Notes under the pieces: generated by a model
The model's input: the letters and a program-made list of their open reading frames with translations, nothing else
The model's database searches: none
Told to the model about the DNA's origin: nothing
Assembly (NCBI GenBank): GCA_965213675.1
Contig: OZ243916.1
Location: forward strand, 1,536,001-1,600,000
Direction: 5' to 3'
Length of the DNA: 64,000 bases
Source of the DNA: an uncultured Candidatus Binatia bacterium
Lineage (GTDB): Bacteria; Desulfobacterota; Binatia; UBA9968; JAJDTQ01
Shown here: in pieces, positions 15,580 through 38,592 of the stretch
Layout: every line of letters begins with the position of its first letter
How positions within the stretch are numbered: the stretch's first letter is position 1
Position numbers and translations under genes: made by a program

Positions 15580-15605
15580 TCTCAAGTCATTCTCTCAAGT
15601 CATTC
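15580..15605. repeat. 13-bp tandem duplication (TCTCAAGTCATTC x2) between gltB and gltD
   Basis: Read directly from the sequence. Confidence 0.8.
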
Positions 15606-20355: not shown

Positions 20356-20517
20356 GTTCAACCGACCTCTGCGGAACGCGCCGGCACGTCCCAGGAGCAT
20401 GCCGCCGCTGCTCGAAACCATCGCGCTTACCACAAAACAGACCCGAATGCAGCCACCCCGCAACCCACGGAACGGCTGCGCGTGCAAGCCTGTGCAAGCA
20501 TGTTGGAGCGATCAGGA

Positions 20518-20543
20518 ATCTACTGCGAGGATCTACTGCGAGG
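20518..20543. repeat. 13-bp tandem duplication (ATCTACTGCGAGG x2) upstream of gltB
   Basis: Read directly from the sequence. Confidence 0.8.
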
Positions 20544-20763
20544 TCAGCGAAGTGCCGTGCCCTTGCGCGACACCACACCGAAGAAACGAAACGCGGTCCG
20601 CCGCGGTGAGCCCTCGATTGTTTCCGTCGATTTCACCGCAAACTTTAACAAGATGGAACGGTTTGCGCCATCGCGGTATACGAGAATACCCTAAGGAACA
20701 ACTGGGCAACTCAGCCTGACCGCTTTTCCTGGAGTTGTGACAACTGATCGGGAGAAACCCACC

Positions 20764-21960
20764 ATGACCTTGGATCTACCGACATTGCAGACTGCCGTAG
20801 CCGGCACGGCGGCAGCGTTCCGTTGCGTAACCACCTATCAGCCGGCGGGAGGCGCCGGCGACAAAGTCTTCCCCCCTACCTACGAAGGTGGAAGATACGC
20901 CACGGAGGAGCGAGTCGATCCCGCGACCGGCGAACACCGACCCTGTGTCCTTCTGGATTCCGTGCAGTCGCAGGCAAACCGCATGGAGTTGGCGTTGCTG
21001 GAAGCGCATCGCGCCGGCCAAGTAGCCCTTCCTCTGCTGGTGGCGCGCTTCGATCAGGAAGAACTGCTCAAAAAGTTCACAGTGACCAGCCTTGAAGCGC
21101 CTCACCGTATTGCGGATGCCCTTTTTCGCGACAGCCGCCTGGATGGAATGATCTTTCGCAAGTCAAAGAAGGGGCGAATCCTCGACACTGCAGACGTGCG
21201 GAACGCCACTGATCTGTTTGGTCTGTGTCCGACCGCTTTGGTGTTCGGACTGTGGGACTCGACCGGACCGCGTGGCGGGTTGGGCTGCAAGTTCCAACGG
21301 GCACTCGTGTCTGAAATAGTTGGGTACGACGCGGTGGCGGGGAAGAAGACGTCCAGCCGCATCGACCCTGCGGAGATCATGCGTAGCGCAGCTACGCTCT
21401 ACGAGCGCACGGCTGAAGGCGACGATGCGCCCCGCTGGACCTTGAACAAGGCGGACGGCAGGAAGCTCAAGACCGGACGGCCTTCGGAGGCCAACCACGG
21501 GAACGTCACTCCCACCATTGCGGATGGCGGATTCACCCTGTCGGGAGCCCGGCAAACGACAACCTTGTCGTTGGCGGTCTTGCGACGCCTCCGTTTTCCG
21601 CTCGATGGCGCCGCCACCTCGGACGCCGCTACCGATCTCGCCGCCCGCACCGCACTGGCTGCCATGGGCCTCGCCGCCGGTAGTCTGGCGCGCGTCGATA
21701 CCGACCTCCGTTCTCGCTGCCAACTGTTTGCGGAGCAAGCACCTGTGTGGGAATTGCTCGAGCGTCCTGGTGAAGTGCCACGACAATTTGAACACGGTCC
21801 CGAAGACGCGCTCGAACTGTTGGCGGAGGCGGTCAAGGTGGCCAAAGATGCCGGCCTGCCGTGGGAGGGCCAGATCGAATTGACTCCGTCGCCCGACTTG
21901 GTCGAACTGGTTCGGCGCAGCCAGGAACTGGCGAGCGCTTCGGAGGCGGAGCAAGGCTGA
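20764..21960 (+). CDS. csb1: Type I-G (I-U) Cas7 backbone subunit Csb1
   Basis: KVFPPTY, LLDSVQSQANRME, PHRIADA, PTALVFGLWDS, SRIDP motifs of Csb1; GGAG RBS before ATG 20764. Confidence 0.93.
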   Translation: MTLDLPTLQTAVAGTAAAFRCVTTYQPAGGAGDKVFPPTYEGGRYATEERVDPATGEHRPCVLLDSVQSQANRMELALLEAHRAGQVALPLLVARFDQEELLKKFTVTSLEAPHRIADALFRDSRLDGMIFRKSKKGRILDTADVRNATDLFGLCPTALVFGLWDSTGPRGGLGCKFQRALVSEIVGYDAVAGKKTSSRIDPAEIMRSAATLYERTAEGDDAPRWTLNKADGRKLKTGRPSEANHGNVTPTIADGGFTLSGARQTTTLSLAVLRRLRFPLDGAATSDAATDLAARTALAAMGLAAGSLARVDTDLRSRCQLFAEQAPVWELLERPGEVPRQFEHGPEDALELLAEAVKVAKDAGLPWEGQIELTPSPDLVELVRRSQELASASEAEQG

Positions 21961-24311
21961 TGTTCGCTCTTGGCATCCGTTACCTGAACGGATGGTCGAT
22001 GGCCGCTGCGGATGGGGCGAGAAAGGAGCGGGCCGAATGGCCGCCGCACCCGGATCGGGTGTTCATGGCCTTGGCCGCGGCTTGGTTCGAGACCGACGGA
22101 GGCGGCTCCGAAGGGGAAGCCCTGCTCTGGCTCGAATCCCTGCCGCCCCCTCAAATCGCCGCGTCGGATGCCGAGTTTCGCGCATCTGTGGTCAGCTACG
22201 TACCCGTCAACGACCCGAGCCTCGGTCGCAAGTTGCCGGCGGGCGGAGGCTTGAACGAGTTGAAGAAGGCCGGACTGGATCAACTCCCGGAGTACCGGTC
22301 GCGCCAGCCCCGCGGTTTTCCTGTCGCCATCCCTCGGGATCCGAAGGTGCACCTGATATGGCCGGACGCCCAAGCAGGTGTGCATCGCGAAGCCCTGGAC
22401 CGGCTGGCTGCCAAAGTCACGCATGTGGGGCATTCGGCATCGTTCGTGCAAGCATGGCTGGAAACCGCCCCGCCCCCGCCCGCGTGGGTTCCGGGGACCG
22501 GCGTCGCGCGTCAGCGCCTGCGTGTGACGAACCCCGGCCGCTTGAAGACGCTGGAAGAGCGCATGAACCGCAACGCCTGGACCGGATACCACGATCTTCG
22601 CCACGAGATCGAGCAGGCCGAGGCCGACATCAAAGCGACGAAGCGCCCGCCCAGGGCGCCTTGGGACTCATTTCCGGATGTGGTTCTGCTGGCCGGCGAA
22701 ATCCAAACCCGACAACATCGCGAGTACGCCGACGCAAAAGCCGCCGACGACGCCGTGGCCGCGGCCAACCTCGTCACCAACCTGGTTGACGAAGCAGCGG
22801 TTGCTGCGGTGCGGACACTGATCGCCCTGGCCAGCAGGAACGGCAGGCCGATCCTGGTCAGCGCGCATGCGTTTGAGGGGCAGGGTCTCAATGCCATTCC
22901 TGCTGCCTTGACGAAACTGCTGAGCGAACGGCTTCGCATCCCGCGCGAGACGACCGTTGTGCAGACGAACATTGTCTCCCACACGGGCGCAGACGGTTAT
23001 GGTCGCCTTGCGCGACAAGCCTGTTTCGACGGCCACATCGAAGCAGGTCAAGAGTACCTTATGGTGGACGACTTCGTCGGCCAGGGCGGTACCTTGGCCA
23101 ATCTGCGCGGCTGGATAGAAAAACAAGGCGGTCGGGTTGTTGGAGCCGTTGCTCTGACCGGCAAACCGTACTCCGCCAGGCTGAACCCTTCGAAGGAGCA
23201 ACTCCATGAACTCCGACAAAAGCACCGGACAGACTTTGAGAAGTGGTGGAAGGCCCACTTCGGCCACGCCTTCGATTGCCTTACTCAATCGGAAGCTCGG
23301 TACCTCGCCCGCTCCCCGGATGTTGACACCATCCGAAATCGCCTTGCTGCGGCAAAGCAAGGTGGAAGTGGATCGAGTCACGGGCGAGGTCCTGGCGAGC
23401 AAAGACAATACGTAAAGGAAATGAAGTCACGTCTGAGAGACCTCTTCCCTGAGGGTGAACCCGTGAGCCTGCGCCCCGTACCGGGCCACTGGCAAGGGTA
23501 CACGGAGGCATTGAAGGAGAGTGTTCCTGAAACACCGGGCTCGGTTTTCGACCCGCGGCTCATTGTCCTCAACATCAAGGGCAAGCGCGTGTCCTTGCCG
23601 GCCACGCTCAAGCTCACCGCGGCTCTGCGCGGCCTGTTGATGCGAGCGTGTGCCGATCAGCCGCCGCCCGAGTGGTTCAGCGGCCATCGCTCGGACGGAA
23701 GGCCAAGCGCCGACCCACATATCGCCCTGATACCCCTTCCCTTCGTCGGCGCCGAACATGCAGACGGTCGCGTCATGGGTTTGGGCCTAGTCCTGCCGGC
23801 CGACCTGGACCCATTGGCAGCCGGCCATTGCCTGGAACCTTTCCTGCACGACCCGGCCACCGGCTTGCCGCGCGAACATCCGTTGTTCGATGGCCAGTGG
23901 TTCGAGTGCGCCATCGAGTTGGAGACACGCGAACGACCGCCGCAGAATCTCCAACCGGCAACATGGACAAGAAAATCGTGCAGTTGGGCAAGCGTAACTC
24001 CAGTAGTCCTGAACCGGCATTTCGACGGGAAGGACAAATGGGCGCGGGCCGCGGACAGTGTGAAAGACGCCTGCCAGCATATCGGCCTGCCCCGCCCCCG
24101 AGAGGTGCTCCTACACCCCGTCTCGCTGGTCGAAAGCGCGCCCCACGCCAGGAACTACCCGCAACTAACCCGCAAGAACGCCGGCGGGGCGCGGAGCCAC
24201 AGCCACGCGGTGATCATCTTTGATGAGCCCGTGCAAGGGCCGGTACTGGTCGGGGCCGGGCGTTTCCGGGGGTATGGATTGTGCCGGCCAATGGATGGGG
24301 GAGGAGAGTAA
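21960..24311 (+). CDS. csb2: Type I-G Cas5/Cas6 fusion Csb2 with an inserted phosphoribosyltransferase domain (783 aa)
   Basis: TGATG overlap with csb1. N-terminal EWPPHPDRVFMAL, YVPVND and GHSASFV; C-terminal WASVTPVVL and Gly-rich GPVLVGAGRFRGYGLC loop. Roughly 250 aa longer than expected because of the internal domain. Confidence 0.92.
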   Translation: MFALGIRYLNGWSMAAADGARKERAEWPPHPDRVFMALAAAWFETDGGGSEGEALLWLESLPPPQIAASDAEFRASVVSYVPVNDPSLGRKLPAGGGLNELKKAGLDQLPEYRSRQPRGFPVAIPRDPKVHLIWPDAQAGVHREALDRLAAKVTHVGHSASFVQAWLETAPPPPAWVPGTGVARQRLRVTNPGRLKTLEERMNRNAWTGYHDLRHEIEQAEADIKATKRPPRAPWDSFPDVVLLAGEIQTRQHREYADAKAADDAVAAANLVTNLVDEAAVAAVRTLIALASRNGRPILVSAHAFEGQGLNAIPAALTKLLSERLRIPRETTVVQTNIVSHTGADGYGRLARQACFDGHIEAGQEYLMVDDFVGQGGTLANLRGWIEKQGGRVVGAVALTGKPYSARLNPSKEQLHELRQKHRTDFEKWWKAHFGHAFDCLTQSEARYLARSPDVDTIRNRLAAAKQGGSGSSHGRGPGEQRQYVKEMKSRLRDLFPEGEPVSLRPVPGHWQGYTEALKESVPETPGSVFDPRLIVLNIKGKRVSLPATLKLTAALRGLLMRACADQPPPEWFSGHRSDGRPSADPHIALIPLPFVGAEHADGRVMGLGLVLPADLDPLAAGHCLEPFLHDPATGLPREHPLFDGQWFECAIELETRERPPQNLQPATWTRKSCSWASVTPVVLNRHFDGKDKWARAADSVKDACQHIGLPRPREVLLHPVSLVESAPHARNYPQLTRKNAGGARSHSHAVIIFDEPVQGPVLVGAGRFRGYGLCRPMDGGGE
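22647..23360 (+). other. Type I PRTase domain inside Csb2
   Basis: PRPP-binding loop YLMVDDFVGQGGTL (23055-23096), preceded by NAIP and VSHTGADGYGRL and followed by GGRVVGAVALTG; flanked by helical, coiled-coil-like segments. Confidence 0.85.
23320..23415 (+). CDS. Possible 31-aa overlapping micro-ORF (MLTPSEIALLRQSKVEVDRVTGEVLASKDNT) in the +1 frame at the PRTase 3' end
   Basis: ATG 23320 to TAA 23415; amphipathic-helix-like; ends close to where Csb2-like sequence resumes. Confidence 0.25.
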   Translation: MLTPSEIALLRQSKVEVDRVTGEVLASKDNT

Positions 24312-24328
24312 CGTGACTGAGTTGACCG
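24312..24328 (+). repeat. Left copy of the 17-bp direct repeat bounding the type III-B block (CGTGACTGAGTTGACCG)
   Basis: 16/17 identical to 32579-32595; both copies contain a GTG start and encode VTELT. Confidence 0.85.
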
Positions 24329-26061
24329 ATGCGGCGCGGGAACACGTGCTACTGACACTGCTCGGAATGAACCCACAGGAGGCACGTTATCGCATAGAGA
24401 ACAAGACGGTGGACGCCACCCTCGCCCCCATCGCCCTGTTTGAGCTATTGCCGGAGGCAGACCGTCCGGACTGGATATTGGCGCTCTGCACGCCAGAGGC
24501 AAAAGGGGCCAGTTTGCCGATCCTCGAAGACGGGTTATCCGGCCAGTGTGTTGTGAAACCCGTTGACATTCCTGCCGGCAACTCTCAGGCGAACGTCCAT
24601 TCCTTCTTGGCTACAGTTGCCGCAGCCATACCGGAGAGAGCTGACCTCACGGTAGATGTTACCCACGGGTTCCGGCATTTTTCGTTCCTTACCTATGTCG
24701 CCGTCCTGTACGTATCGGCGCTTCGAGGCATACGGATACGCGGCGCGTACTACGGCATGTTGAGTCGCAATGATGTGAGTCCTTTTCTCGATTTGCGGCC
24801 GCTTCTTGAACTGCCCCGCTGGCTTCACGCGCTGCAGGTGTTGAAGGATACGGGGAGCGCCGCGTCCATTGCCCGCATCCTCAATGACGGCTCACAAGGA
24901 CAGGCGTCGCGGCGAATCGCAAAACGTCTGTCGCAGTTCTCGGAAGCGTACTTGTCCGGTCTTCCGCTCGAACTCGGCCGTCACGCGGATGAGTTCGAGC
25001 AGCAATCAATGAAGCCATTGAAGAAGCTACTCCAGAAGGATCACGCCTTACCCCTCGGGAACGAGTTGGCTGATCAACTTGCAGGGTTCCTGAAGCCGTT
25101 GGCCTTGGGATCACAAGTTTCAGGGAGCGGGTGGAAGCAAAAGATGGCGCTGTCGAAGGAGGAATTGGAGCGCCAAGCCGCAGTCATCGACAATCTGCTG
25201 CGCCACGGAAGCGTCACAGCCGCATTGGGTCTCATGAACGAGTGGACCGTATCGTGGGTGATTTGGGTCCGCGCGGAACGCAAAAGCGAGTGGCTCGACT
25301 ACCGCAAGGTCCGGCGCGACGCTGCGAGCCGTCTCGGCGCCATAAGGGCCATCGGCAACGACTCTGAATTGTGTTCGCTGTTGACGAAGGAACAGCGTTT
25401 GCTCGGAGCTTTTTGGAGAAAACTGTCTGACCTTCGCAATGGATACCACCACCACGGCATGCGCCCGCAGGTCCTGATCGGCGACGCGCAAACCGAGAAT
25501 GAGCTTCAGTGTGTGCGAGAATACTGGACGACAACGCTACGATCATGCCCTGAGAATTTCAGGTTCTCGCTCGGTGATTCGTCTGGAGGCCAAGTGCTGG
25601 TCAGTCCCATCGGGATGCGGCCCGGCGTACTGTACAGCGCATTGCACGCATGCAAGGGGGACAACAGCAAGAACATGTTGTCGCATTGCCTCGTGATCTG
25701 CTCGCCCGAAACCCAAGGGAGGATCGACGAAGCAGTAGAGCACGCGGGGTACAAAGGGCCTGTTGAACCGCTTGTTATCGAAGACGCATTCGGCGGTGGC
25801 TCCGGGGAAATCCACAGCGTCGTGGCGAGAGGGCGAAAACACATCATCGGCGCCGAGGCCGTCTTCGTGAACGTCACCGGCGGCACGACGCTCATGGGCC
25901 TTGCCGCCGAAGCCCTCGCCAGTGCAGGGCGTGAACTTGCCTGTCCGGTGCGCCGGTTCGGTATGATCGACCGCCGGCCGCCAAGAGAACAGGAGGACGA
26001 CCCCTACCGGGCCGGTGAACCCTTCTGGCTGGACGCGGGAGAAGACAAGGATGCCAACTGA
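24313..26061 (+). CDS. csx1: Csx1/TM1812-family CARF-HEPN ribonuclease with an extra C-terminal CARF domain (582 aa)
   Basis: DVTHGFRH CARF motif (24655), HEPN R-x4-H motif RNGYHH (25435-25452), second CARF-like domain VLVSPIGMRPGVL...VNVTGGTTLM (25591-26061). Confidence 0.85.
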   Translation: MTELTDAAREHVLLTLLGMNPQEARYRIENKTVDATLAPIALFELLPEADRPDWILALCTPEAKGASLPILEDGLSGQCVVKPVDIPAGNSQANVHSFLATVAAAIPERADLTVDVTHGFRHFSFLTYVAVLYVSALRGIRIRGAYYGMLSRNDVSPFLDLRPLLELPRWLHALQVLKDTGSAASIARILNDGSQGQASRRIAKRLSQFSEAYLSGLPLELGRHADEFEQQSMKPLKKLLQKDHALPLGNELADQLAGFLKPLALGSQVSGSGWKQKMALSKEELERQAAVIDNLLRHGSVTAALGLMNEWTVSWVIWVRAERKSEWLDYRKVRRDAASRLGAIRAIGNDSELCSLLTKEQRLLGAFWRKLSDLRNGYHHHGMRPQVLIGDAQTENELQCVREYWTTTLRSCPENFRFSLGDSSGGQVLVSPIGMRPGVLYSALHACKGDNSKNMLSHCLVICSPETQGRIDEAVEHAGYKGPVEPLVIEDAFGGGSGEIHSVVARGRKHIIGAEAVFVNVTGGTTLMGLAAEALASAGRELACPVRRFGMIDRRPPREQEDDPYRAGEPFWLDAGEDKDAN

Positions 26062-27064
26062 AATTCAGGCAACGTATCGTGTCATCACCCCGCTGTTCTG
26101 CGCTGGCGCCACTCGCTCTCACGCCGAACTTCGGACATCGTCCTTCAAGGGCGTGCTGCGCTTCTGGTGGCGGGCGCTGGCATGGTCGCGGCATAATGGA
26201 GATCTTCAAAGTATCCAGGATCACGAGAATCTGATCTTCGGAGCGGCCACTGTTGGCCAATCTCGCGTTTCCATTCTGCCGATTTCGATCAATGAAACAG
26301 TGTCCGGTTTCGGACACAATTTGGGACTTGGCCAAAGCGCTCGCTACTTGGCCCATGGCCTTCTGGAGAAAGACGAGAACAAGAAACGGGGGTTTCTTGA
26401 TCCAGATTTTAACCTCGTTGTTAGGATGAGAGTACGCGACTGTGATGACCGTCAAAAAGACCTGCTGAGAGATGCCTTGATCGCCTTGGGAATGTTCGGC
26501 GGCATGGGTGCAAGAAGTCGCAAGGGATTTGGCTCGACTTCTATCCGCTCTTTTCGCTTCGCAGGCGAACAGCAATCATTCGAGGTAGGGTCCGTACGGG
26601 AGTTGAGCCGCACGATCAAGCAGGTGTGTAGCGCTTATCGTCTATCAATCATGCCCGAATATACAGGGTTATCCAAAAGGGCTCGCCATCTGCTCCTTTC
26701 GAGCGACGGAAGTAACCCGCTTCAGTTGCTCGACAAGATCGGCGAAGAACTCAGGGAGGCCATTAGAACCGTACCACCTCTTCAGCGCATCGCCTTCGGT
26801 CTGCCACGCAAACCCCGCAACGACCGCCGCGCCAGCCCTTTGTTTATCCACATTCACGAGTGTGGTGATTCTCCGGTCGCCGTACTGTCGTTCCTCCCCG
26901 CGCGATTTCTGCCTGAACCCAAAGCGAATACTCCGGCCGCGGGAAACGGAATTGCTCAGCGTCCGATTCATGAACTCTACCGCCCGATTCACGACTTTCT
27001 TGACCGCCTGCTCGATCCGCAACGGAAGGGCCAGTTCACCGTTGTCCAGGAGGTGCAGCCGTGA
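26051..27064 (+). CDS. cmr1: Type III-B RAMP subunit Cmr1
   Basis: ITPLFCAGA, SFKGVLRFWWRA, GGMGARSRKGFGS, FGLP and RRASPLFI motifs. Confidence 0.92.
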   Translation: MPTEIQATYRVITPLFCAGATRSHAELRTSSFKGVLRFWWRALAWSRHNGDLQSIQDHENLIFGAATVGQSRVSILPISINETVSGFGHNLGLGQSARYLAHGLLEKDENKKRGFLDPDFNLVVRMRVRDCDDRQKDLLRDALIALGMFGGMGARSRKGFGSTSIRSFRFAGEQQSFEVGSVRELSRTIKQVCSAYRLSIMPEYTGLSKRARHLLLSSDGSNPLQLLDKIGEELREAIRTVPPLQRIAFGLPRKPRNDRRASPLFIHIHECGDSPVAVLSFLPARFLPEPKANTPAAGNGIAQRPIHELYRPIHDFLDRLLDPQRKGQFTVVQEVQP

Positions 27065-29028
27065 CGATGCGTCTCGACATCTCCATCGGACCCGTGCAGG
27101 GCCTCGTCACCCAGTCTCGACGCACGCGCGATCTGTGGGGCAGATCTTACTTGCTGTCATTCTTGTCCGCCCACGCGATGCGCGGCGCACAAGTGGCAGG
27201 CGGCAGGTTCATCCAACCGGTGGCCGAAGTTGTCGAAACGGACCATCTTTACCGTTGGGTTCGCGGCCAACGGGAGGACGAATCGCCGCGAATCGGTTCG
27301 GTCTCGAACCATTTTGCTCTGGAAGTGGATGGAGATGTGCAAGAGGTTGCCGAGGAGAGCAGACGGGCGTTCGACGAGGCCTGGATGCGTGTGTGCAGAG
27401 CCGTTTGGGAGCGTTTCGTCAGGCATGCCTGTTCGCACGGGAATGCCACGGATGGCATCTGGCACCGTCAGATTGGTGGGTTCTGGGAGGTCATGTGGAC
27501 GGCGGGGGCATCGAACACCGGGGGCGGTTTGCTTGGCCGCCGCAAGCATTGGCGCAGTCACCATCCGCCCGAGGAACCCGGCGACAAGTGTACAGTCATG
27601 CACGATTGGCAGGAGTTGTCGGGCCACGTTCGAGGGGAAAGCCGAACAAGTCGTGACTTGCAGGATCGGTTTTGGAAGACCGTCCGCGAGGGCACCGGGC
27701 GCCTGGGCTTGCGGGACAACGAGCGTTTGTGCGCCGTCGCGTTGGTGAAGCGGCTGTTCCCGGAGGTCGCCCGTGAAGCCTTGGGCTGGCGGGTCGACGC
27801 GTCGCACTGGCCGTCAACCGTTTACGTCGGCGCCTTGCCCTGGATCTGCCGGGTGGTGCAGACCGAACCGGAACTGGCAAGCGAATATGCCGCAGCTGTC
27901 AAGCAGAGCACCACCACAGGCGTTCTGGCGGAGCGGAAGCCTTTGTTCGCCGGCCTGGAGAAGGAGAATGCTGGCGACTTCGCCAAACTCGACGCGAACT
28001 ACATGCGGCGTGAATCCGTCGCCAATGAACGGCTTTGTCCGTTGAATGATGACGCTATAGCCGGCACCCGCGAGAAGCTGGACAGCCTGTTGAAAGCCGT
28101 CTACGACGCCCGCGACGAATCCGGCCGCAAACTTGGGCCGCCGCCAGCCTTCTACGCCCTCCTCCTTGCTGACGGCGACCATCTCGGCAAGCTGTTGGGT
28201 GACCTCGGAGGCGAGACGGTGAGCCGGGCGTTGGCGGCTTTCACAACCAAGGTTCCGCAGATCGTGGGCGATTCTCGAGGCGTCACGATCTATGCGGGTG
28301 GAGACGACGTGCTCGCCATGCTGCCTGTACCGGGCGCCCTGGACTGTGCGGACAAGCTCGCCGAGGCATATCGAGCGGCATTTGAAGACGCCGGGGCGCC
28401 TGCCGGGACGACCCTGTCCGCGGCGGTGATCTTCGCCCACATTCGTTTGCCGCTCAACCACGTCGTTGGCGAAGCGCATCGGCTGCTGGACGATGTTGCC
28501 AAGGACGGGAATGGCCGCAATTCCCTGGTTGCGGCGGTTCTAAAGCCGGGTGGCATGCAGTGCCAATGGACAACGACGTGGGTCCGCAGTGGTCCGGAAG
28601 GCGCCATGAGCGCGGTGGGGTCGCTCGGTAATCTGATTGGACAACTCAAAAGCAGCACAACGGAACCCGGCCTTTCCTCCTCGCTCATTTACCGGATGCG
28701 GGACACCCTCACCCGGCTCTGCGGCTGGGACTCATGGCAACCCGGCAATTGGGGTGCGCTGCCTCAAGGTCTGGATGTTCGCGCATTCCTGCGGGCGGAG
28801 ATACACCACAGCCTGGATTCAAGAATGGATGGCGGCGCGGACGCTCGGGCCGACGTAATGGCCGATTGCGTCTGGAACCTGCTGGGTTCGGCGCGGAATC
28901 CACAAGGCGACAACCCTGATGCACTACTGGCTGGCAACGCGAACATGTCCGTTGCCGAAGCTGGCGTTGATTCGCTGTTGCTCGCCCGATTTCTCGCAGA
29001 CCCTGAAGAACAGGAGTCAAACCGATGA
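27061..29028 (+). CDS. cas10: Type III-B Cas10/Cmr2, no HD domain, intact GGDD palm
   Basis: Starts directly with SIGPVQ..SRRTRDLW; YALLLADGDHLG and IYAGGDDVLA (GGDD at 28297-28308). Confidence 0.94.
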   Translation: MTMRLDISIGPVQGLVTQSRRTRDLWGRSYLLSFLSAHAMRGAQVAGGRFIQPVAEVVETDHLYRWVRGQREDESPRIGSVSNHFALEVDGDVQEVAEESRRAFDEAWMRVCRAVWERFVRHACSHGNATDGIWHRQIGGFWEVMWTAGASNTGGGLLGRRKHWRSHHPPEEPGDKCTVMHDWQELSGHVRGESRTSRDLQDRFWKTVREGTGRLGLRDNERLCAVALVKRLFPEVAREALGWRVDASHWPSTVYVGALPWICRVVQTEPELASEYAAAVKQSTTTGVLAERKPLFAGLEKENAGDFAKLDANYMRRESVANERLCPLNDDAIAGTREKLDSLLKAVYDARDESGRKLGPPPAFYALLLADGDHLGKLLGDLGGETVSRALAAFTTKVPQIVGDSRGVTIYAGGDDVLAMLPVPGALDCADKLAEAYRAAFEDAGAPAGTTLSAAVIFAHIRLPLNHVVGEAHRLLDDVAKDGNGRNSLVAAVLKPGGMQCQWTTTWVRSGPEGAMSAVGSLGNLIGQLKSSTTEPGLSSSLIYRMRDTLTRLCGWDSWQPGNWGALPQGLDVRAFLRAEIHHSLDSRMDGGADARADVMADCVWNLLGSARNPQGDNPDALLAGNANMSVAEAGVDSLLLARFLADPEEQESNR

Positions 29029-30143
29029 TTGGCGTTCGGCTTCAGCCGGTTGACACCTGGTTCTTTCGCGACGGGACACCGTTCACCCAGGACAGCACGC
29101 CCCAGGAGAACGTCCGCAGTTTTTTTCCACCGCATCCGCCGACGGTCGTGGGCGCGCTCCGGGCGGCTTTGGCCCGCGACAACGGTTGGACGGGCCAAGG
29201 ACGTTGGCCGCAACGAATTTGCGACGTGCTCGGCGACGGCCCGGAGCACCTGGGGGCTCTTTCCTTTGTCGGCCCCTTTCTTCTCCGCAACGAAGAACCG
29301 CTGTTTCACGCACCGCGTCATCTGCTGGGTTCGACGGCCGGCGCGCTTTGGCACCCAGACGCCTTCCTCCGGCCCGGCGCTCCGGTGATGTGCGATCTGG
29401 CTCCGAGGGAGGGAATCCGGCTCCCTGAAGTATCCAGCAACACAGAAGACATCGAAAAACTCAAGACCGGCGATGGCCGTTGGCTGACACGGGACGGCAT
29501 GGGCACCGTGCTTCGTGGTGGTCTTCCGCGCCCCAACGACGTGATACCAGATCGTTGCCTGTGGTCCGACGAACCGCGCATTGGCTTGGAACGCGACAAC
29601 ACGACGCGCACGGCCATGGAAGGCATGCTCTACAGCAACCAGCACATTCGCCCGCTACGAGAAGTTGCGCTCGGCATGAAAGTTGCCGGCCTGCCCCAAG
29701 GATGGACGCCGCCCTTCGAAGAGTTGATACCCTTGGGCGGCGAGAGCCGCCTCGCCGAGTGTCAGGAGTGGAACACGGATTTGGCTCTTGAGACGGACAT
29801 GGAGAAAATCAAAGCCACCGGAAAGGCCGCTGTCATCGCTCTTTCGCCGGTGGAACTGACGGAGGACATATGTCGCGGGGCCGAACCGATTGACGATCTG
29901 TGCGGCGCCCGTATCGTATCGGCCTGTCTGGACCGGCCGTCGCGAATCGGCGGGTGGAATTCCTTGGCGTGCCGTCCGTTGCCGCTGCGATCCGTGTTGG
30001 GATCGGGCAGCGTCCTCTTTTGCGAGATCGACGACCCGGAACATTTCGCGGAGAACATGGCAACCGGCGACGGGCTGGCGCGCATAGGTTCTCGCCGTGA
30101 ATGGGGTTTTGGTCTCGTCGCGGTCGGCAATTGGCCAGATTAA
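29025..30143 (+). CDS. cmr3: Type III-B subunit Cmr3
   Basis: PVDTWFFRDGTPF, PPHPPTVVGALR, LGGESR, IGGWN and terminal GFG motifs. Confidence 0.93.
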   Translation: MIGVRLQPVDTWFFRDGTPFTQDSTPQENVRSFFPPHPPTVVGALRAALARDNGWTGQGRWPQRICDVLGDGPEHLGALSFVGPFLLRNEEPLFHAPRHLLGSTAGALWHPDAFLRPGAPVMCDLAPREGIRLPEVSSNTEDIEKLKTGDGRWLTRDGMGTVLRGGLPRPNDVIPDRCLWSDEPRIGLERDNTTRTAMEGMLYSNQHIRPLREVALGMKVAGLPQGWTPPFEELIPLGGESRLAECQEWNTDLALETDMEKIKATGKAAVIALSPVELTEDICRGAEPIDDLCGARIVSACLDRPSRIGGWNSLACRPLPLRSVLGSGSVLFCEIDDPEHFAENMATGDGLARIGSRREWGFGLVAVGNWPD

Positions 30144-30157
30144 CAGGAGGAAAATTC

Positions 30158-30982
30158 ATGAGAGCAGCGATGCTGGGGCTGTTGGCCGAAACACCCATCC
30201 ATCCTGGTGCCGGGCGCGGCATGGGCGTGGTGGACCTGCCTGTGGCCCGAGAGGCTGCCACCGACTATCCCGTGCTCGTCGGATCGAGCTTGAAGGGCGC
30301 ACTGCGTGACAAGGCGGACGACAGTTCCAGCGACGAGCGGTTCGGGAGACCAGATCACGCGGGTGACCTGCTGGTGTCGGACGCACGGCTGTTGCTGTTG
30401 CCAGTTCGCAGTCTGACCGGTGCATACCGCTGGACCACTTGTCCGCATCTCATCGAACGGTACGTTCGCGATTGTGCCCGCTCGGGTAGACAAACAGAGT
30501 CTTTGGCGAGCCTAGATGTGGACAAGGGAAAGGTGCTTGCGAACGGTTCCGGCGACCTGTTGTTCCTTGAAGAAAGGCAGTTCACCATCCAAGAACCTGC
30601 ACCCGGCTTGAAAGCCATCATCGCGCCGCTACTGCTTCATGAAGAAACGCGAAATCGGTTGGATGAACAGATCGCCGTACTGAACGATGACGATTTCGCT
30701 TGGTTCGTGCGTTACGGCCTTTCTGTACAGGCACGCAACGTTCTGGATAAAGATGGGAGCAAAAGGAGCAAAAACCTGTGGTACGAGGAAACTCTGCCTC
30801 CCGATACGGTGCTATATGCCGTCATCACGGGCCGAAGCAACACGGCTCTGGACACTTTGGATTCCATCTTTCCCGATAGCGACCCCTACCTGCAAGCCGG
30901 CGGCAACGAAACCGTCGGTCAGGGCTGGTTCGCCGTCAGCGTCCTCAAGCCCGCCGCCAAAAATGGGGAGAACTCCCAATGA
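30158..30982 (+). CDS. cmr4: Type III-B backbone RNase Cmr4
   Basis: ETPIHPGAG..VVDLPVARE (catalytic Asp retained), GSSLKGALR, LWYEETLPPDT, QAGGNETVGQG; AGGAGG RBS. Confidence 0.95.
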   Translation: MRAAMLGLLAETPIHPGAGRGMGVVDLPVAREAATDYPVLVGSSLKGALRDKADDSSSDERFGRPDHAGDLLVSDARLLLLPVRSLTGAYRWTTCPHLIERYVRDCARSGRQTESLASLDVDKGKVLANGSGDLLFLEERQFTIQEPAPGLKAIIAPLLLHEETRNRLDEQIAVLNDDDFAWFVRYGLSVQARNVLDKDGSKRSKNLWYEETLPPDTVLYAVITGRSNTALDTLDSIFPDSDPYLQAGGNETVGQGWFAVSVLKPAAKNGENSQ

Positions 30983-31389
30983 GGACCATCGAACAGGAAC
31001 GTGCGGCAAACGCCCTTGGGCGTGTGAGCGAACTGAGTAGCGAGATCCAAAGCGTCAAGGTGCGTTACAGAAGTTACGTGGATCGCCTCGGACCGGCCAT
31101 CGTGATGAACGGTTTGGGGCAGGCACTGGCTACGGAGCTTGCGGCGGCTGGCTCAGAACCGAACAATCCGGAGGCGAAGGCGCACCAGTATCTCTATAAA
31201 AGTGTCCAGGGGTGGCTTTGCCGCGACGGCGGCGTTTATCCGCCCGATACAGATCTCTTGCAGGTTCTTATGGAGAAGGACGAAGCGCATTACGTCCGCG
31301 CCCAAGCCGAAGCGTTGGCGTGGCTTGAGTGGCACAAGAAGTGCTGCCGAGCCTCTCTTCCGAAGGCGACACAAGGAGACGATTCGTGA
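30979..31389 (+). CDS. cmr5: Type III-B small subunit Cmr5
   Basis: EQERAANAL, MNGLGQALA, EALAWLEWHKK; sits between cmr4 and cmr6. Confidence 0.92.
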   Translation: MRTIEQERAANALGRVSELSSEIQSVKVRYRSYVDRLGPAIVMNGLGQALATELAAAGSEPNNPEAKAHQYLYKSVQGWLCRDGGVYPPDTDLLQVLMEKDEAHYVRAQAEALAWLEWHKKCCRASLPKATQGDDS

Positions 31390-32528
31390 CCCTTCCGCTT
31401 TACAAGGCCGCGGCTGACCGACCGCCGAGCCGGGCAGCTTCCGGACACGCGGGCTTGTGGTTCGACAAATTCTGCAACCAGTGGCGCCGTGAGCAGTCCA
31501 CCTGGACCATGAAGGGCCGCGACGAGCACAACCCCAAGCCCGAATGGATCAAGACCTTGACGAAAGGAAAGGTCGGTGCAGATTCGCACCTCCGGGAGAA
31601 CGCGTTGCGCGTTGCGGCACTGGTCGACAGCCGTAACGGGTACTTTGAAGTGTTCACCACGACGTCACGCTTCGTAACGGGCTTGGGCCGCAGCCATCCC
31701 ATCGAGAACGGCTTTGCCTGGCATCCCACATTGGGAACGCCGTATGTGCCGGGAAGCTCAGTCAAGGGTCTGGTCTGCTCCTGGGCCAGGCTGGACGCCG
31801 AGCCTCATCCCGACAAACAGCTTCGGGAACGCCTGCTTGGAACGCCCGATAAAGCCGGGAGCCTGTGTTTCCTCGATGCCATCCCCGTTGCACCCGTGCA
31901 ACTCGAAGCCGACGTGATGACGCCTCACTACGCGGGCTGGAGTGTGAATGACCCCCCGGGAGACTGGCGGTCGCCAACACCCATCCCGTTCCTGACTACG
32001 GCCGCGGATACACCCTTCCTGTTCGCGACGATCCCGGCCCGTGACATTTCTGACGCTGATCTGAGTGACGTCCGGGAATGGCTGTGTGCCGCACTTACGT
32101 GGGGCGGGGCAGGCGCCAAGACGATGATCGGTTACGGCCGTTTCGAGAGCAGCGAGCACGAAACGACCAGTTTGAGGGACAAACTGCGCAAGCGCAAAGA
32201 AGATCTCGAAACGCTGATGCAAGCCGAACGTACGGCCAGGGAGCGTGAGGAGCGGTTGGCAACCCTCAGTCCTACGGAGCGCGAGATCGAGGAATTGCTC
32301 AATGAGCGTCAGGACAGAAACATGCATGAAATCACCGCCGTCATGCAGGTGATCGAGAGCGGACGTTGGACTGGAGAAGCCAGGACTGAAGCCGCACGGT
32401 GGCTGGAGAACCGGATGAAGGGTGCGAAGCGATGGAAGGAAACCAGCCAGAAAAAACGCCCTGCCAAGGACCGGGACCATCAGAACACGTTACGCGTCAT
32501 GCGCTGGCTGCGGGGCGAAGCATCGTGA
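31386..32528 (+). CDS. cmr6: Type III-B RAMP subunit Cmr6 with a charged helical C-terminal extension
   Basis: GLGRSHPIENG, GTPYVPGSSVKG, DVMTPHY, PTPIPFL, GAGAKTMIGYG motifs. Confidence 0.92.
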   Translation: MTLPLYKAAADRPPSRAASGHAGLWFDKFCNQWRREQSTWTMKGRDEHNPKPEWIKTLTKGKVGADSHLRENALRVAALVDSRNGYFEVFTTTSRFVTGLGRSHPIENGFAWHPTLGTPYVPGSSVKGLVCSWARLDAEPHPDKQLRERLLGTPDKAGSLCFLDAIPVAPVQLEADVMTPHYAGWSVNDPPGDWRSPTPIPFLTTAADTPFLFATIPARDISDADLSDVREWLCAALTWGGAGAKTMIGYGRFESSEHETTSLRDKLRKRKEDLETLMQAERTAREREERLATLSPTEREIEELLNERQDRNMHEITAVMQVIESGRWTGEARTEAARWLENRMKGAKRWKETSQKKRPAKDRDHQNTLRVMRWLRGEAS

Positions 32529-32578
32529 GGGGCCGCATCGGGTGCCTCAACACTGACCTTGCCTGACGAAGTGAACCC

Positions 32579-32595
32579 CGTGACCGAGTTGACCG
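32579..32595 (+). repeat. Right copy of the 17-bp direct repeat (CGTGACCGAGTTGACCG) at the cas3 start
   Basis: 16/17 identical to 24312-24328. Confidence 0.85.
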
Positions 32596-35500
32596 CAACC
32601 AACTTCGTCGACTTCTTCACAGCGTCGTGGGGCCATCCGCCCTTTGCATGGCAGCGGACCTTGGCGGAGCGCGTGCTGGAACGTACCGAGGCCCCGTGGC
32701 CCGAGGCGATCGCTCTACCGACGGCTTCCGGCAAGACCGCTTGCATGGATGTCGCCGTGTTCGCGTTGGCGGCGCAAGCGTCGCGGATGGCGTCCAAGCA
32801 GACCATCACTATGCCTCGCCGCATCTTCTTCGTGGTGGACCGGCGCGTGATCGTGGACGAGGCGTATGAACGCGCCAGACGATTGGCCCAGAAACTGGAT
32901 GAAGCGGATGAGGGTATCGTCAAGAGCGTCGCGGACAATCTTCGGCAGATCGCCCACGGCGAACCAGAGGGATACGATCACGAGCGACCGCTGGCTGCCC
33001 ACTTGTTACGCGGCGGGATGTACCGCTCCGAAGCCTGGGCGCGGAATCCGTTGCAACCGACTGTGGTCGCATCCACCGTTGACCAGATCGGCTCTCGCCT
33101 GCTGTTCCGCGCCTATGGACGCGGCTCCGGCACTTGGCCGATCTATGCGGGACTCATCGCCAACGACAGCCTCATCCTGCTCGACGAGGCGCACTGCGCT
33201 CAACCGTTTCTTCAGACCCTGCGGGCGGTTCGACGTTTTCAGACTTGGGGGCATACCCCGCTCAAGCGATTCTTCTGTCCCGTGGTCATATCCGCCACGC
33301 CGCCCGCAGGAATAACGGACGTATTCGAGGACCGGTCCGATGAACGTTCCGATCCGCTTCATCCGCTCGGCCGGCGGCAAACCGCGCATAAGCCGGCGGT
33401 CCTGGAGACAGTCGAGAAAGCCAAAGGAAACCGAGCCACGCATGTGTTGGCTCAGGCTTTGGCCGATGCAGCAACCGGCTTGGTCAGTGAACAACGTCGA
33501 GCGATCGTGATATTCGCCAACCGCGTGGCCACGGCGCGGGAGACTCACCGGCTATTACGGAACGATTACGGAGACCGTGCGATCTTGCTCACCGGCCGTA
33601 TGCGCCCCGTGGATCGAGACGCCGTCGTTCAACAGCGTTTGACGCCCCTTTACTCTCATCGGTCAGAGCAACGCGTACTGAAAGAGCCGCTGGTTGTCGT
33701 AGCTACGCAGACCCTGGAAGTCGGTGCAGACCTTGATTTCGACGGTCTTGTCACGGAATGCTCAAGTCTTGACGCCCTGCGTCAACGCTTCGGCCGCTTG
33801 AACCGCATGGGACGGGCCATCGAAGCGCGAGCAAGGATTCTTGTCCGCGGAGACCAGGCTCACGCGGCCTCGGAAAATCCGGAGTCGGCGAAACAGAAGA
33901 CACGGATGGACGACGACCCGGTTTACGGTGCAGCCTTGGCCCGGACGTGGACGTGGCTCAACATGCACAAGGACGACGGGGATGCGATCGACTTCGGAAT
34001 CATCCATCTCGAACAGCAATTGACGGATGGCGGGTCCCTCGCGGCCCTTGACGCCCCGGCCCGTGACGCCGCGGTGATGCTTCCCGCCCACCTCGATTGC
34101 TGGGCGCAGACGGCCCCGGTCCCATGCCCGTCCCCTGACGTCGGCCTGTTCCTGCACGGCCCGCGCGAAGGAGTGGCTGACATTCAGGTCTGCTGGCGCG
34201 CGGACCTGGATCTGATCGGGGAACAGGAAACGGCGCTGGAGTTGCTATCCTTGTGCCCACCGAGCAGCAACGAAACCCTGCCCGTGCCCATCGGCGTGTT
34301 CCGGCGATGGCTGGCGCGGGGAGATGTCGAAGACGACAGTGCGGACGTGGAGGGAATCGAGGGAATCGGCACGGAGGACGATAGCGACAGAAAAAGTGCA
34401 CCGGTGGTCCGGTGGCGCGGGGCAGACACCGGCCGGGACGACATCACGGACGATCCCAAGGCCATTCGACCCGGCGACGTGATCGTGATTCCGGCCAGCC
34501 ATCCGGGACAGGCGCGCCAACTCGGCGACGTGCCGCCCGACGCTGCCCTCGACGTGGGTGACGAGGCTTATCGTCGCGCCCGTGCCAAATCCATCCTTCG
34601 GCTTCATCCGGCGCTCGTGAACGATTGGCCGGACTTCATCCCGGCGCAGACAGCCGCAGCCGAACTGCTGAAGAGTCTCGAGCAGAAGATGGAGTGCGAG
34701 GACGATTCGAACGACGTGGGTGATGCCTTGCGGGAGATACTGGCGGAGTTGGCCGCCTCGGAACCGACTTCGGAACGGTGGGCCTGGCTGCCGAAAACAG
34801 CCGGAGAGTTGCTGGAAGAGTACCGAAGCGGCGGGTTGGACCGCGCCTGCCGGATTGTCGGCAACGAAAGCATCGTCCTCGTCGGGCATCGCCACCTACG
34901 TCACCTCGCCCACGAAGCCGACAACTTCAGCGACGAGGATGACGCCGCCGCATCCGGCATTTCGCACCGGGACGGAGAACCTGTCCTGCTCGAAAAACAT
35001 CTTCCGGGGGTGGAAACGTTCGCCCGGCGTCACGCCGTGGGCTGTGGACTGCCGGATGAACTGGCGGATGCCGTGGCGCGGGCGGGGCTGTTGCACGATC
35101 TGGGCAAGGCCGACCGACGGTTTCAGTCCATGTTGCGCGGCGGCGCCCTCTGGTCCGACGGGCTGCTCCTGGCGAAATCCTCACGAATGCCCAAAACCCG
35201 AGCGGCCCGCGGTCGTGCGCACGCGGAATCCGGCTATCCCAGACGAGGCCGGCACGAATTGCTCTCAGTGCGTATGGCCGAGACCGCTTCGGCGCTTTTG
35301 CCCAAGGACGAGGAACTGCGCGACGTGGTTCTGCACCTGGTTGCCAGCCATCACGGCTACTGTCGGCCGTTCGCTCCCGTGGTATCTGATCCCGAGGGCG
35401 TGGAGGTTGAGTATGAACTGAACGGGTCGAAGATGTGCTGGTCCGGCCCTACCGGCCTTGAGCGCCTCGATTCCGGCATCGCAGACCGCTACTGGAGATT

Positions 35501-35606
35501 GGTGAGGCGCTATGGCTGGTGGGGCGTGGCTTGGCTGGAAGCCTTGTTGCGACTGGCAGACTGGCGGCGAAGCGAATGGGAGGAGACGCACGGTGCCGAC
35601 GAGTGA
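32580..35606 (+). CDS. cas3: Type I-G Cas3 (N-terminal SF2 helicase, C-terminal HD nuclease)
   Basis: PFAWQ, LPTASGKT (Walker A), VVDRRVIVD, LLDEAH, QRFGRLNR; C-terminal LLHDLGKAD (HD at 35094), RHE and SHHG. Alternative TTG start at 32559. Confidence 0.95.
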   Translation: MTELTATNFVDFFTASWGHPPFAWQRTLAERVLERTEAPWPEAIALPTASGKTACMDVAVFALAAQASRMASKQTITMPRRIFFVVDRRVIVDEAYERARRLAQKLDEADEGIVKSVADNLRQIAHGEPEGYDHERPLAAHLLRGGMYRSEAWARNPLQPTVVASTVDQIGSRLLFRAYGRGSGTWPIYAGLIANDSLILLDEAHCAQPFLQTLRAVRRFQTWGHTPLKRFFCPVVISATPPAGITDVFEDRSDERSDPLHPLGRRQTAHKPAVLETVEKAKGNRATHVLAQALADAATGLVSEQRRAIVIFANRVATARETHRLLRNDYGDRAILLTGRMRPVDRDAVVQQRLTPLYSHRSEQRVLKEPLVVVATQTLEVGADLDFDGLVTECSSLDALRQRFGRLNRMGRAIEARARILVRGDQAHAASENPESAKQKTRMDDDPVYGAALARTWTWLNMHKDDGDAIDFGIIHLEQQLTDGGSLAALDAPARDAAVMLPAHLDCWAQTAPVPCPSPDVGLFLHGPREGVADIQVCWRADLDLIGEQETALELLSLCPPSSNETLPVPIGVFRRWLARGDVEDDSADVEGIEGIGTEDDSDRKSAPVVRWRGADTGRDDITDDPKAIRPGDVIVIPASHPGQARQLGDVPPDAALDVGDEAYRRARAKSILRLHPALVNDWPDFIPAQTAAAELLKSLEQKMECEDDSNDVGDALREILAELAASEPTSERWAWLPKTAGELLEEYRSGGLDRACRIVGNESIVLVGHRHLRHLAHEADNFSDEDDAAASGISHRDGEPVLLEKHLPGVETFARRHAVGCGLPDELADAVARAGLLHDLGKADRRFQSMLRGGALWSDGLLLAKSSRMPKTRAARGRAHAESGYPRRGRHELLSVRMAETASALLPKDEELRDVVLHLVASHHGYCRPFAPVVSDPEGVEVEYELNGSKMCWSGPTGLERLDSGIADRYWRLVRRYGWWGVAWLEALLRLADWRRSEWEETHGADE

Positions 35607-36525
35607 ATTGCCTCCAGGAATTCTACTGGGCGGGATCGACGGGAGCAATCCGCTCGGGTTTCTTGCGGCCATCGGGACGTTGCGGATGGCGACCCGTGCG
35701 TCCCCCTCATCCAACTGGCACCTTCAGTGGCAGGTGTGTGACGGGACATGGACGCCAAAACTGCTGGGGTACGATTCGTTTTCAGAAGACGACCTGATCG
35801 ATCTGCTGATGCCGCCGCTCGAGAAAGCGAAGGACCAACCCGCGCTGACATTTGCCCAGAATCTCAACGTCAGTTGTGAACGGTTCAGAGCCGTAACCGA
35901 AAGAGCCCAGGCAGCAGCCACTCTCACAGATAGGGACGAGGCCGACTTTGTGGCGGCGTTCGGCTGCGAGAGCATGCCCGTTTCAGGCAAGGACCCGACC
36001 ATCCAGGACACCGCGCTGAGAACCATGAGCGGTGCCGGCCATCAACACTTTCTCGGTTCCATGCTGGAACTGACTCAAACGACGGGGCCGGACCATCTAC
36101 GTGCTTCGTTGTTTTTTCCATGGCGGTACTCGGACGACAGACCGAACCTGCGCTGGGACCCCGTGGACGACCGCCGGTATGCCTTGCGTTGGAACGAGCC
36201 CTCGGGCGACCCGGTACGAACCATGCGGGGCGCCAACCGTCTGGCGGTCGAAGCTCTCCCCCTTTTCCCTACCGCTGCCGGAGAAACTCGACTTCAAACA
36301 ACGGGATTTTCGCAACGGCGCCGCGAAGGTGTATTGTTCACATGGCCGATATGGAACTTGCCTTTGAACATCGACACTGTTCGCTCCGTGCTCAGTCTGC
36401 CCGAGTTGCAAGAGCCAAGGCCGAACCGTGACGGACTGTTGGCGATGGGTATCGTCGAGATTTATCAGAGTGAACGAATTACCAGGGACAAGTACCGCAA
36501 CTTCACCGCGGCAACACCCACATGA
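35593..36525 (+). CDS. csb3: Type I-G short large-subunit-like protein Csb3 (Cas8u2-like)
   Basis: GIDGSNPLGFLAAIG, LRWDP and ANRLAVEALPLFP motifs; directly after cas3; AGGAG RBS. Confidence 0.8.
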   Translation: MPTSELPPGILLGGIDGSNPLGFLAAIGTLRMATRASPSSNWHLQWQVCDGTWTPKLLGYDSFSEDDLIDLLMPPLEKAKDQPALTFAQNLNVSCERFRAVTERAQAAATLTDRDEADFVAAFGCESMPVSGKDPTIQDTALRTMSGAGHQHFLGSMLELTQTTGPDHLRASLFFPWRYSDDRPNLRWDPVDDRRYALRWNEPSGDPVRTMRGANRLAVEALPLFPTAAGETRLQTTGFSQRRREGVLFTWPIWNLPLNIDTVRSVLSLPELQEPRPNRDGLLAMGIVEIYQSERITRDKYRNFTAATPT

Positions 36526-36579
36526 CACAGAGCGTACGGCCTTGAATGGCTTTCCGTTCCCTGTATTGCTCTTCCTCGC

Positions 36580-38292: not shown

Positions 38293-38298
38293 ACTGCC

Positions 38299-38592
38299 AT
38301 GGCCAATGAGCGTCTCTACATAGTGACTTACGACATCGCCGAGCCCAAGCGCTGGCAAAAGATATTCAAGACCATGAAGGGATACGGTCACTGGCTCCAA
38401 CTGTCGGTCTTTCAGTGTCGGCTCACGGCGCGCCGGCGCGCTGAGATGGCCATGCGCTTGGAAGACCTGATCCGGCCCTCGGAGGATCACATCCTGATCG
38501 TCGACCTCGGTCCCGCCGACAGCGTCGACCCGCGCGTCGAGAGCCTGGGCAAGAGCTACGAGGCGCCGGACCGTCGAGCCACGATCGTTTAG
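38299..38592 (+). CDS. cas2: CRISPR-associated endoribonuclease Cas2
   Basis: YIVTYDI..KRW, GYGHWLQLSVF; 97 aa. Confidence 0.96.
   Translation: MANERLYIVTYDIAEPKRWQKIFKTMKGYGHWLQLSVFQCRLTARRRAEMAMRLEDLIRPSEDHILIVDLGPADSVDPRVESLGKSYEAPDRRATIV

Follow-up and report, generated by a model that had tools for sequence, protein, structure and literature searches.

A 17-nucleotide direct repeat as the probable footprint of a type III-B cassette inserted at the csb2-cas3 junction of a type I-G CRISPR-Cas operon

The subject of this analysis is a type I-G CRISPR-Cas operon of an uncultured Candidatus Binatia bacterium, located on contig OZ243916.1 of GenBank assembly GCA_965213675.1; the stretch analyzed, referred to below as the window, comprises 64,000 nucleotides (nt) of the forward strand (contig positions 1,536,001 to 1,600,000). 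Profile scores compared with NCBIfam cut-offs give the gene order csb1, csb2, a csx1-like gene encoding a CARF protein with the DxTHG motif, cmr1 to cmr6, cas3g, a gene for a Cas3-extension family protein, cas4g/cas1g, and cas2 (Table 1), with csx1-cmr1-6, a type III-B cassette, lying between csb2 and cas3g. The first codons of csx1 and of cas3g fall in two copies of a 17-nt direct repeat, which is very probably the footprint of an old duplicative rearrangement that placed a csx1-cmr1-6 cassette devoid of Cas6 exactly at the csb2/cas3 junction of the type I-G operon.

The repeat pair and the genes around it

The left copy of the repeat, CGTGACTGAGTTGACCG (24312-24328), contains the GTG start codon of csx1 at 24313, and the right copy, CGTGACCGAGTTGACCG (32579-32595), contains the GTG start codon of cas3 at 32580. 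The two copies are identical at 16 of 17 positions and both encode VTELT; their sole mismatch (T at 24318, C at 32585) exchanges ACT for ACC, both threonine codons, and the distance from start to start is 8,267 bp. These particulars had been given in a preliminary description made from the sequence alone, and direct reading of the window confirmed them, together with the ribosome-binding site GGAGGAG ahead of csx1. A repeat search recovered the pair as family D7, and a search of the window with the 17-mer at up to two mismatches returned two matches, compared with 0.02 expected from 100 shuffles. Read in the csb2 frame, the left copy retains CGT GAC TGA, which is the csb2 stop position of the related loci L037, G011, L025, and L089 (see below); it is the T of this ancestral TGA that differs between the two repeats, and the csb2 stop of the window (TAA, 24309-24311) now stands two codons before it. 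The public gene call for the window's own Csx1 (P0001, 588 aa) starts at ATG 24295, six codons upstream of GTG 24313; the latter position is kept as GTG in L037 and G011 and is preceded by a Shine-Dalgarno sequence.

The block bounded by the repeats (24313-32528) is wholly occupied by seven abutting or overlapping open reading frames (ORFs), csx1 and cmr1-6, which leaves no space for an integrase or a transposase; neither was found among the genes of the block, as the preliminary description had stated. Terminal inverted repeats were likewise not detected: of 128 inverted pairs, the 25 longest all lie away from the ends of the block. The type III-B effector set is complete within this single block (Cas10/Cmr2 with Cmr1, Cmr3, Cmr4, Cmr5, and Cmr6), and five of its six proteins score above the NCBIfam cut-offs. 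The csx1-like protein carries the DxTHG CARF domain of Csx1 effectors (TIGR02549) and scores 65.7 bits with TIGR02221, under the cut-off of 76.25; its R-N-G-Y-x-H-H-G-M-R stretch, a candidate for the HEPN nuclease motif R-x4-6-H, is conserved across the alignment of Csx1 homologs, and searches returned no match in Pfam and, at E up to 0.1, none among PDB sequences. The remainder of the operon provides the components of a type I-G system, namely Cas3g, Csb1/Cas7g, the Csb2 fusion, the Cas4g/Cas1g fusion, Cas2, and an adjoining array. The gene names of the preliminary description held, its csb3 being the gene for the Cas3-extension protein. The csb2 ORF is open from 21861, and its start was placed at ATG 21960 by comparison with G011, in which stop codons precede MFALGIRYL.

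Table 1. Features of the hybrid I-G/III-B locus (positions in the window; scores are for NCBIfam profiles unless stated otherwise).
Feature	Position	Strand	Evidence or remark
csb1 (Cas7g), first of the type I-G effector genes	20737..21960	+	TIGR02570, 74.5 bits (cut-off 38)
csb2 (Cas5-Cas6 fusion), 783 aa from ATG 21960	21960..24311	+	TIGR02165, 297.9 bits (cut-off 45); Pfam PF09609
Shine-Dalgarno GGAGGAG within the csb2 tail	24300..24306	+	direct reading; 6 nt before GTG 24313
17-nt repeat, left copy; putative former csb2/cas3 junction (start codon and 4 2/3 codons), now the 5' end of csx1	24312..24328	+	
csx1-like CARF protein (DxTHG; RNGYxHHGMR)	24313..26061	+	probably chimeric ORF with codons 1-5 derived from cas3; TIGR02549, 28.3 bits (cut-off 21)
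cmr1	26015..27064	+	TIGR01894, 55.2 bits (cut-off 28.65)
cmr2/cas10	27061..29028	+	TIGR02577, 133.9 bits (cut-off 79.4)
cmr3	29025..30143	+	TIGR01888, 76.2 bits (under cut-off 100.4, yet full-length alignment)
cmr4	30101..30982	+	TIGR02580, 168.4 bits (cut-off 87)
cmr5	30979..31389	+	TIGR01881, 48.2 bits (cut-off 27.9)
cmr6, last gene of the block	31329..32528	+	TIGR01898, 127.1 bits (cut-off 51.1)
Spacer from cmr6 stop to right repeat	32529..32578	+	similarity to csb2 tails not significant
17-nt repeat, right copy; start of cas3 itself	32579..32595	+	start position common to relatives (ATG or GTG)
cas3g helicase-nuclease	32580..35606	+	TIGR02621, 710.5 bits (cut-off 400), full length
Type I-G Cas3-extension family protein (csb3)	35512..36525	+	NF049934, 276 bits
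cas4g/cas1g fusion	36580..38292	+	NF049935, 787.8 bits (cut-off 560)
cas2	38299..38592	+	TIGR01573, 40.8 bits
CRISPR array	38802..42000	+	at least 44 copies of a 36-nt repeat (lower bound, as the search region ended at 42000); 7-bp hairpin, CCTC, then ATTGAAGC

A promoter and terminator scan of 20000-39000 returned fewer sites than were found in shuffled sequences. The GC profile is flat (0.59-0.67) except for a dip at cmr1, where it falls to 0.555 (26000-26999). This gene (26015-27064) is just 45% identical to cmr1 of G011, compared with 77-80% for the neighboring genes, and in contig X5 of a related strain 26192-26972 is replaced by 974 different letters; the cmr1 region looks like a swapped variable segment.

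Empty and filled csb2-cas3 junctions in relatives

A Cas3 search covering 61 related genomes, with gene orders determined by tblastn of the window proteins on 20-kb stretches, found this type I-G lineage in seven genomes of the genus (Cas3 identity 69-100%). In three of the seven (G008, G013, and G010) the order is csb1-csb2-cas3-csb3-cas4/1, with cas3 directly after or overlapping csb2, while G011 has the same gene order as the window; G002 and G006, which possess a distant I-G type, carry the csx1-cmr1-6 cassette upstream of csb1. A metagenome scan with a Csb2 alignment yielded 80 loci, none of them with a type III match; 14 end at csb2, and cas3 comes next after csb2 in all 66 that have downstream sequence (a count including L164, with 40% Cas3 identity, which lies under the filter and was tallied by hand). 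The order csb1-csb2-cas3, which the preliminary description had given as the standard one, is therefore the rule, and the window is the exception.

In the empty sites L025, L026, and L089, the csb2 TGA lies within the first cas3 codons, and the two genes are translationally coupled. Comparison with such type I-G loci free of cmr genes, proposed in the preliminary description, supports its view of the repeat as an insertion scar: against L025, the left flank of the window aligns from deep in csb2 through ...GTTGAACG, and the right flank aligns from CCATGAG. By local alignment, the two flanks share 19 nt in L025 and 27 nt in L026, the shared piece contains the 17-mer, and both flanks thus hold the same piece of the empty site.

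A second hybrid, L037, was found in a metagenome-assembled genome (MAG) of Latescibacterota; it has the gene order of the window, namely csb1 (81%), csb2 (74%), csx1 (58%), cmr1-6, cas3 (66%), and csb3. At the left junction, L037 runs colinear with L025 as far as the base at which the window too leaves it, and then diverges into csx1; the left breakpoint, described earlier from the window only, is thus found again in an independent hybrid. The csb2 TGA of L037 falls in csx1 codons 2-3, like the csb2/cas3 overlap in L025 and L089, and its csx1 start matches the cas3 start of L025 at 15 of 17 positions, the preceding csb2 tail being colinear; G011 shows the same layout, with the csb2 stop in csx1 codons 2-3. 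The insertion is ancient, predating the split of the window's species from G011, with the same junction present in the Latescibacterota MAG.

In addition to these hybrids, the sister species G022 and G026 carry a III-A-like cassette between csb2 and cas3, and this second type III cassette at the same site is newly found here. In G022 (L021, 5026-10017), it comprises ~5 kb encoding a short Cas10/Csm1 (507 aa), Csm2, Csm3, Csm4, and a TIGR02710 CARF-HEPN protein of the Csm6 type; in G026, the csb2-csm1 junction and csm4-csm6-cas3 are on different contigs (L170, L022). No csm5 was seen in the cassette of G022/G026. The csb2 tail of G022 tracks that of the window to 24308 and then departs, and no flanking duplication is visible at the G022 cassette. 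Since G022 and G026 nest among the III-B carriers G011 and the window on a Cas3 tree of 19 chosen rows (support for the fork of the window and G022 is just 80/68), the most economical reading would be that the III-A-like cassette replaced III-B in these species.

The source of the csx1 start was examined from both sides. Among Cas3g N-termini (73 loci, 60 distinct), x-x-[ED]-L-[TSN] occurs in 25/60, leucine occupies residue 4 in 46/60, and residue 9 is F or Y in 60/60; because the motif is so widespread in this family, ELT is native to Cas3g. The Csx1 search gave 450 matches, and starts were analyzed in the best 120, of which 116 have an intact start. These proteins share a core, (E/D)HLLLTVLG, preceded by leaders variable in length and sequence; among the matches listed, the leader is TEL-like in 11 of the 116, including the window's own Csx1 and its 93% relative. 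Two of the nine others could be placed in context, P0036 (the Csx1 of L037) and P0118, and both are behind csb2; the placement of P0118 follows from its called extension MDCAGPW..., which resembles the conserved Csb2 C-terminus read in the +1 frame, a feature shared with the window and L037. Among 40 GTDB loci with a readable csx1 start, just the hybrids stand out (VTELND in L037; VVESN in G011, decayed but still like the cas3 start of L025), and none of the csx1 leaders of the 38 other, non-hybrid loci has a TEL-like start; Csx1 begins with MHVDD... in G002 and MNTEE... in G006. The earlier expectation that Cas3 homologs keep VTELT and Csx1 homologs lack it was thus favored by the widespread Cas3g motif and by most Csx1 leaders, which are unrelated to it, a TEL-like minority being the exception. 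The widespread motif in Cas3g and the colinearity of the left junction with empty sites support the proposal that csx1 inherited the cas3 start.

The cassette also occurs elsewhere: csx1-cmr1-6 was found at 50-65% identity in MAGs titled Entotheonella, Poribacteria, Latescibacterota, Dehalococcoidia, Gemmatimonadota, Acidobacteriota, and others, which suggests that it has spread laterally and widely. In another Binatia MAG, csx1-cmr1-6 is preceded at a distance of ~70 nt by an ORF of 152 aa (L054, 9410-9868), the first ~100 residues of which correspond to the N-terminus of Cas3g; an amidase gene is located farther upstream, and I-G genes were not detected. This ORF probably remains from a deletion within a cas3...csb2-csx1 arrangement. 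A Bryobacterales locus (L081, 8074-10897) has the order cas3-csb3-csb1-csb2-csx1, its csx1 starting with MTTHPD... in an ATGA overlap with csb2 and its csx1 match being split by ~1 kb.

Origin of the junction and competing explanations

We propose that the left copy would be the original junction, in which a Shine-Dalgarno sequence at the end of csb2 precedes the start codon, codons 1-5 belong to cas3, and the csb2 stop position falls in codons 2-3, and that these cas3 codons would have been joined in frame to csx1 near codon 6 of the latter; through this in-frame fusion, translation of Csx1 would begin at what was once the initiation site of cas3, immediately behind csb2. The right copy would be cas3's own start, retained so that both genes remained intact. 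Because csb2 and cas3 overlap in empty sites, only an insertion that duplicated the overlap would spare both, which may explain why the duplication survives at this junction. For the first join, the candidate routes are single-crossover integration of a circular piece or template switching at short homology, and, less likely, tandem duplication followed by deletion. The block is very probably not an active element.

Several observations weigh against this reading or limit it. The two repeat copies of G011 match at 10/17 only, and cas3 of L037 lacks two codons after the start and overlaps the cmr6 stop; with G011 and L037 diverged in this way, the near-identity seen in the window is not general and could partly reflect chance retention or gene conversion. 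The decay in G011 also implies that the scar is old and decaying where unconstrained. Across the 4.5 Mb of the genome, the 17-mer recurs once more at 16/17, within an unrelated transporter-like ORF, so that the 16/17 match by itself is not beyond chance at genome scale, and the case therefore rests on the position of the copies at two gene starts and on colinearity with the empty sites. On the Cas3 tree, the hybrids do not form one clade, as L037 is sister to the empty site L089 (100/99) and the window's clade to the empty site L024 (100/100); a single origin would thus require that precise losses followed or that recombination in conserved flanks carried the junction laterally. As to the extent of the duplication, the 51-nt cmr6-cas3 spacer of the window and G011 was compared with six csb2 tails by local alignment (1000 shuffles each), and the best p was 0.038 in one of 12 comparisons, the others giving 0.08-0.98; the right-hand spacer not being significantly csb2-like, the demonstrable duplication amounts to just about 17-19 nt.

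Two candidate extensions of the argument were dropped. One was a duplication of 30-55 nt extending upstream of the 17-mer, given the result for the spacer. The other was a recombination patch by which the junction could have been transferred: L037 cas3 is nearer to the window clade than L089 just in columns 150-400 (79-85% vs. 69-78%), the first 150 columns show no such nearness, and as this is within noise for 150-nt windows, nothing is claimed. The third genomic copy of the 17-mer (G000:C1:633649-633665, L087) lies in an ORF of 589 aa resembling a membrane transporter (...AVTELTGV...) and is a chance copy.

An improbable alternative is that a subgroup of Csx1 proteins has the TEL leader as a native feature, and that its pre-existing resemblance to the cas3 start offered a short homology at which a circular or linear cassette recombined into the operon, the two 17-mers then having separate origins in donor and recipient. 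A single crossover at short homology would yield exactly this structure, and the 11 TEL-like proteins among the 116 homologs listed are mixed with non-TEL proteins in at least three clades of a leader-trimmed Csx1 tree (36 chosen rows), seven of them (P0008, P0013, P0034, P0049, P0056, P0102, and P0115) having no placed context. However, each TEL-type csx1 with readable context (the window, L037 = P0036, and P0118) stands behind csb2, the motif is absent from the 38 non-hybrid GTDB loci and family-wide in Cas3g, and the empty sites run colinear with the left junction, spacing included, from far inside csb2 to the end of the 17-mer. The preliminary description had named a native start of this kind in unrelated loci as an objection to its own proposal; the objection is answered for the two placed proteins, which lie behind csb2, and may still apply to the seven others.

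We regard it as very improbable that the repeats are still recombination sites at which, in present populations, the block loops out and re-enters or is exchanged. Excision exactly at the repeat would recreate an ordinary csb2-cas3 junction; moreover, empty and hybrid loci are intermingled on the Cas3 tree, and G022 and G026 carry a different cassette at the same site. On the other hand, 17 nt with one mismatch is a very short homology for homologous recombination, the cassette has been kept in G011 and L037 despite decay of the repeat, and the III-A-like cassette of G022 is not flanked by a duplication. Among public reads, eight runs were found, seven of which contain the locus (two studies, none recorded as RNA), and four, all Logan contigs, were aligned on 23300-33600. 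No contig of these four runs skips the 8,267 nt between 24312 and 32579, although rare variants are invisible in contigs, and the suggestion that the block might still loop out therefore found no evidence. Contigs bridge the left junction in X1, in X2, and, from a ~95% relative, in X5; none of those listed bridges 32493-32547.

That the match arose by chance or by convergence of two translation-initiation regions, with no common descent, is hardly credible, for although a third 16/17 copy does occur in an unrelated gene and both sites are start regions in a GC-rich genome, two matches were found in the window where 0.02 were expected, the copies stand at the starts of both genes flanking the insert, the L025 cas3 and L037 csx1 starts agree at 15/17 behind colinear csb2 tails, and the same breakpoint recurs in two phyla.

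A broader and doubtful proposal would extend the insertion at the csb2-cas3 junction beyond a single event. According to it, the junction in this I-G lineage would be a docking site at which type III cassettes (III-B with csx1, III-A-like with csm6) are gained, swapped, and precisely lost without a dedicated recombinase, the duplicated cas3 start offering short homology for excision and re-entry, and hybrid operons or junctions spreading between phyla of co-resident bacteria.

Two effectors in one operon and comparison with known systems

From the gene content, one operon, one Cas4/1-Cas2 module, and one array would feed two effectors, namely a DNA-targeting type I-G complex and an RNA-sensing Cmr complex with Csx1 as its effector. 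The TIGR01877 profile detected no stand-alone cas6 in the genome (97.7% complete), and the III-B block has none either. Type III complexes need an 8-nt 5' tag on their CRISPR RNAs (crRNAs), and by analogy the Cas6 domain of Csb2 would generate the 8-nt handle on the crRNAs of both effectors.

A close comparison is the type I-G system of Thioalkalivibrio sulfidiphilus, in which Csb2 is described as a Cas5-Cas6 fusion that cuts the 36-nt repeat 4 nt 3' of its hairpin and leaves an 8-nt handle (PMC9638904). The repeat of the window has the same layout (36 nt, 7-bp hairpin, CCTC, and ATTGAAGC). T. sulfidiphilus likewise has a III-B system, but it is described as a separate locus, whereas the III-B genes of the window lie inside the I-G operon; its large subunit is Cas8g/Csx17, in contrast to the csb1-csb2-cas3-Cas3-extension order of the window's lineage (PMC9638904), and Csb2 of the window carries an extra insert of ~250 aa. 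The insert occupies residues about 260-520 of Csb2, which has 783 aa in the window and ~530 aa in most metagenome relatives. It gives a weak phosphoribosyltransferase-like match (PF00156, E 0.002, under its cut-off), and in L048, L074, and L082 the sequence immediately before csx1 contains stretches that share 38-73% identity with the insert.

In Pyrococcus furiosus, a Cst locus with an associated Cmr module is described, the arrays, one crRNA-processing enzyme, and one adaptation set being shared (PMC4666368). The window resembles this composite of types I and III in having a Cmr module at one locus with a type I system, and differs from it in three respects: the III-B genes lie within the I-G operon between csb2 and cas3, their first gene is probably an in-frame chimera at a join readable to the base, and the Cas6 activity would come from a Cas5-Cas6 fusion instead of a free Cas6.

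Adaptation and effector modules are described as having partly independent histories (Koonin and Makarova, 2019; PMC6452270). Such module shuffling is also visible here, as cas4/cas1 are 80-98% identical across L021-L034, while csb1, csb2, and cas3 of these loci are just 30-46% identical to those of the window; the adaptation module appears to be exchanged or conserved independently of the effector genes. The published pattern is at the level of genes (PMC6452270), and the present locus adds a junction resolved to the nucleotide, empty sites for comparison, and another type of cassette in the same place. Short direct repeats that flank a block, together with an empty site holding one copy, recall the target-site duplication of transposons or a Campbell-type att duplication; unlike in these, there is no transposase, integrase, or terminal inverted repeat, and the repeat is 17 nt long, coding, and decayed in relatives.

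Titles and abstract openings listed by full-text searches mention no junction of this kind, and earlier publication is possible. Composite I/III loci and module shuffling are already known (PMC6452270), and the readable scar, the probably chimeric start, and the re-used site make the locus a new form of them. Module shuffling is usually inferred from conflicting gene trees, whereas here the join itself is legible, with empty sites, a filled site with a base-level breakpoint, and an unrelated second type III cassette in sister species. The chimeric first gene would take over the initiation site of the displaced gene and its upstream coupling, and a single Cas5-Cas6 fusion, adaptation module, and array may serve a DNA-targeting and an RNA-sensing effector, a compact natural design. 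We consider the locus a neat case that introduces no new principle.

Two further features were noted at the edges of the operon. In the array, two neighboring repeat-spacer units (40709-40860) are 100% identical and represent a duplicated spacer. Upstream of csb1, two large ORFs (15502-18348, 948 aa; 18397-20328, 643 aa) gave no NCBIfam or Pfam match and are conserved at 69-74% upstream of csb1 in G022.

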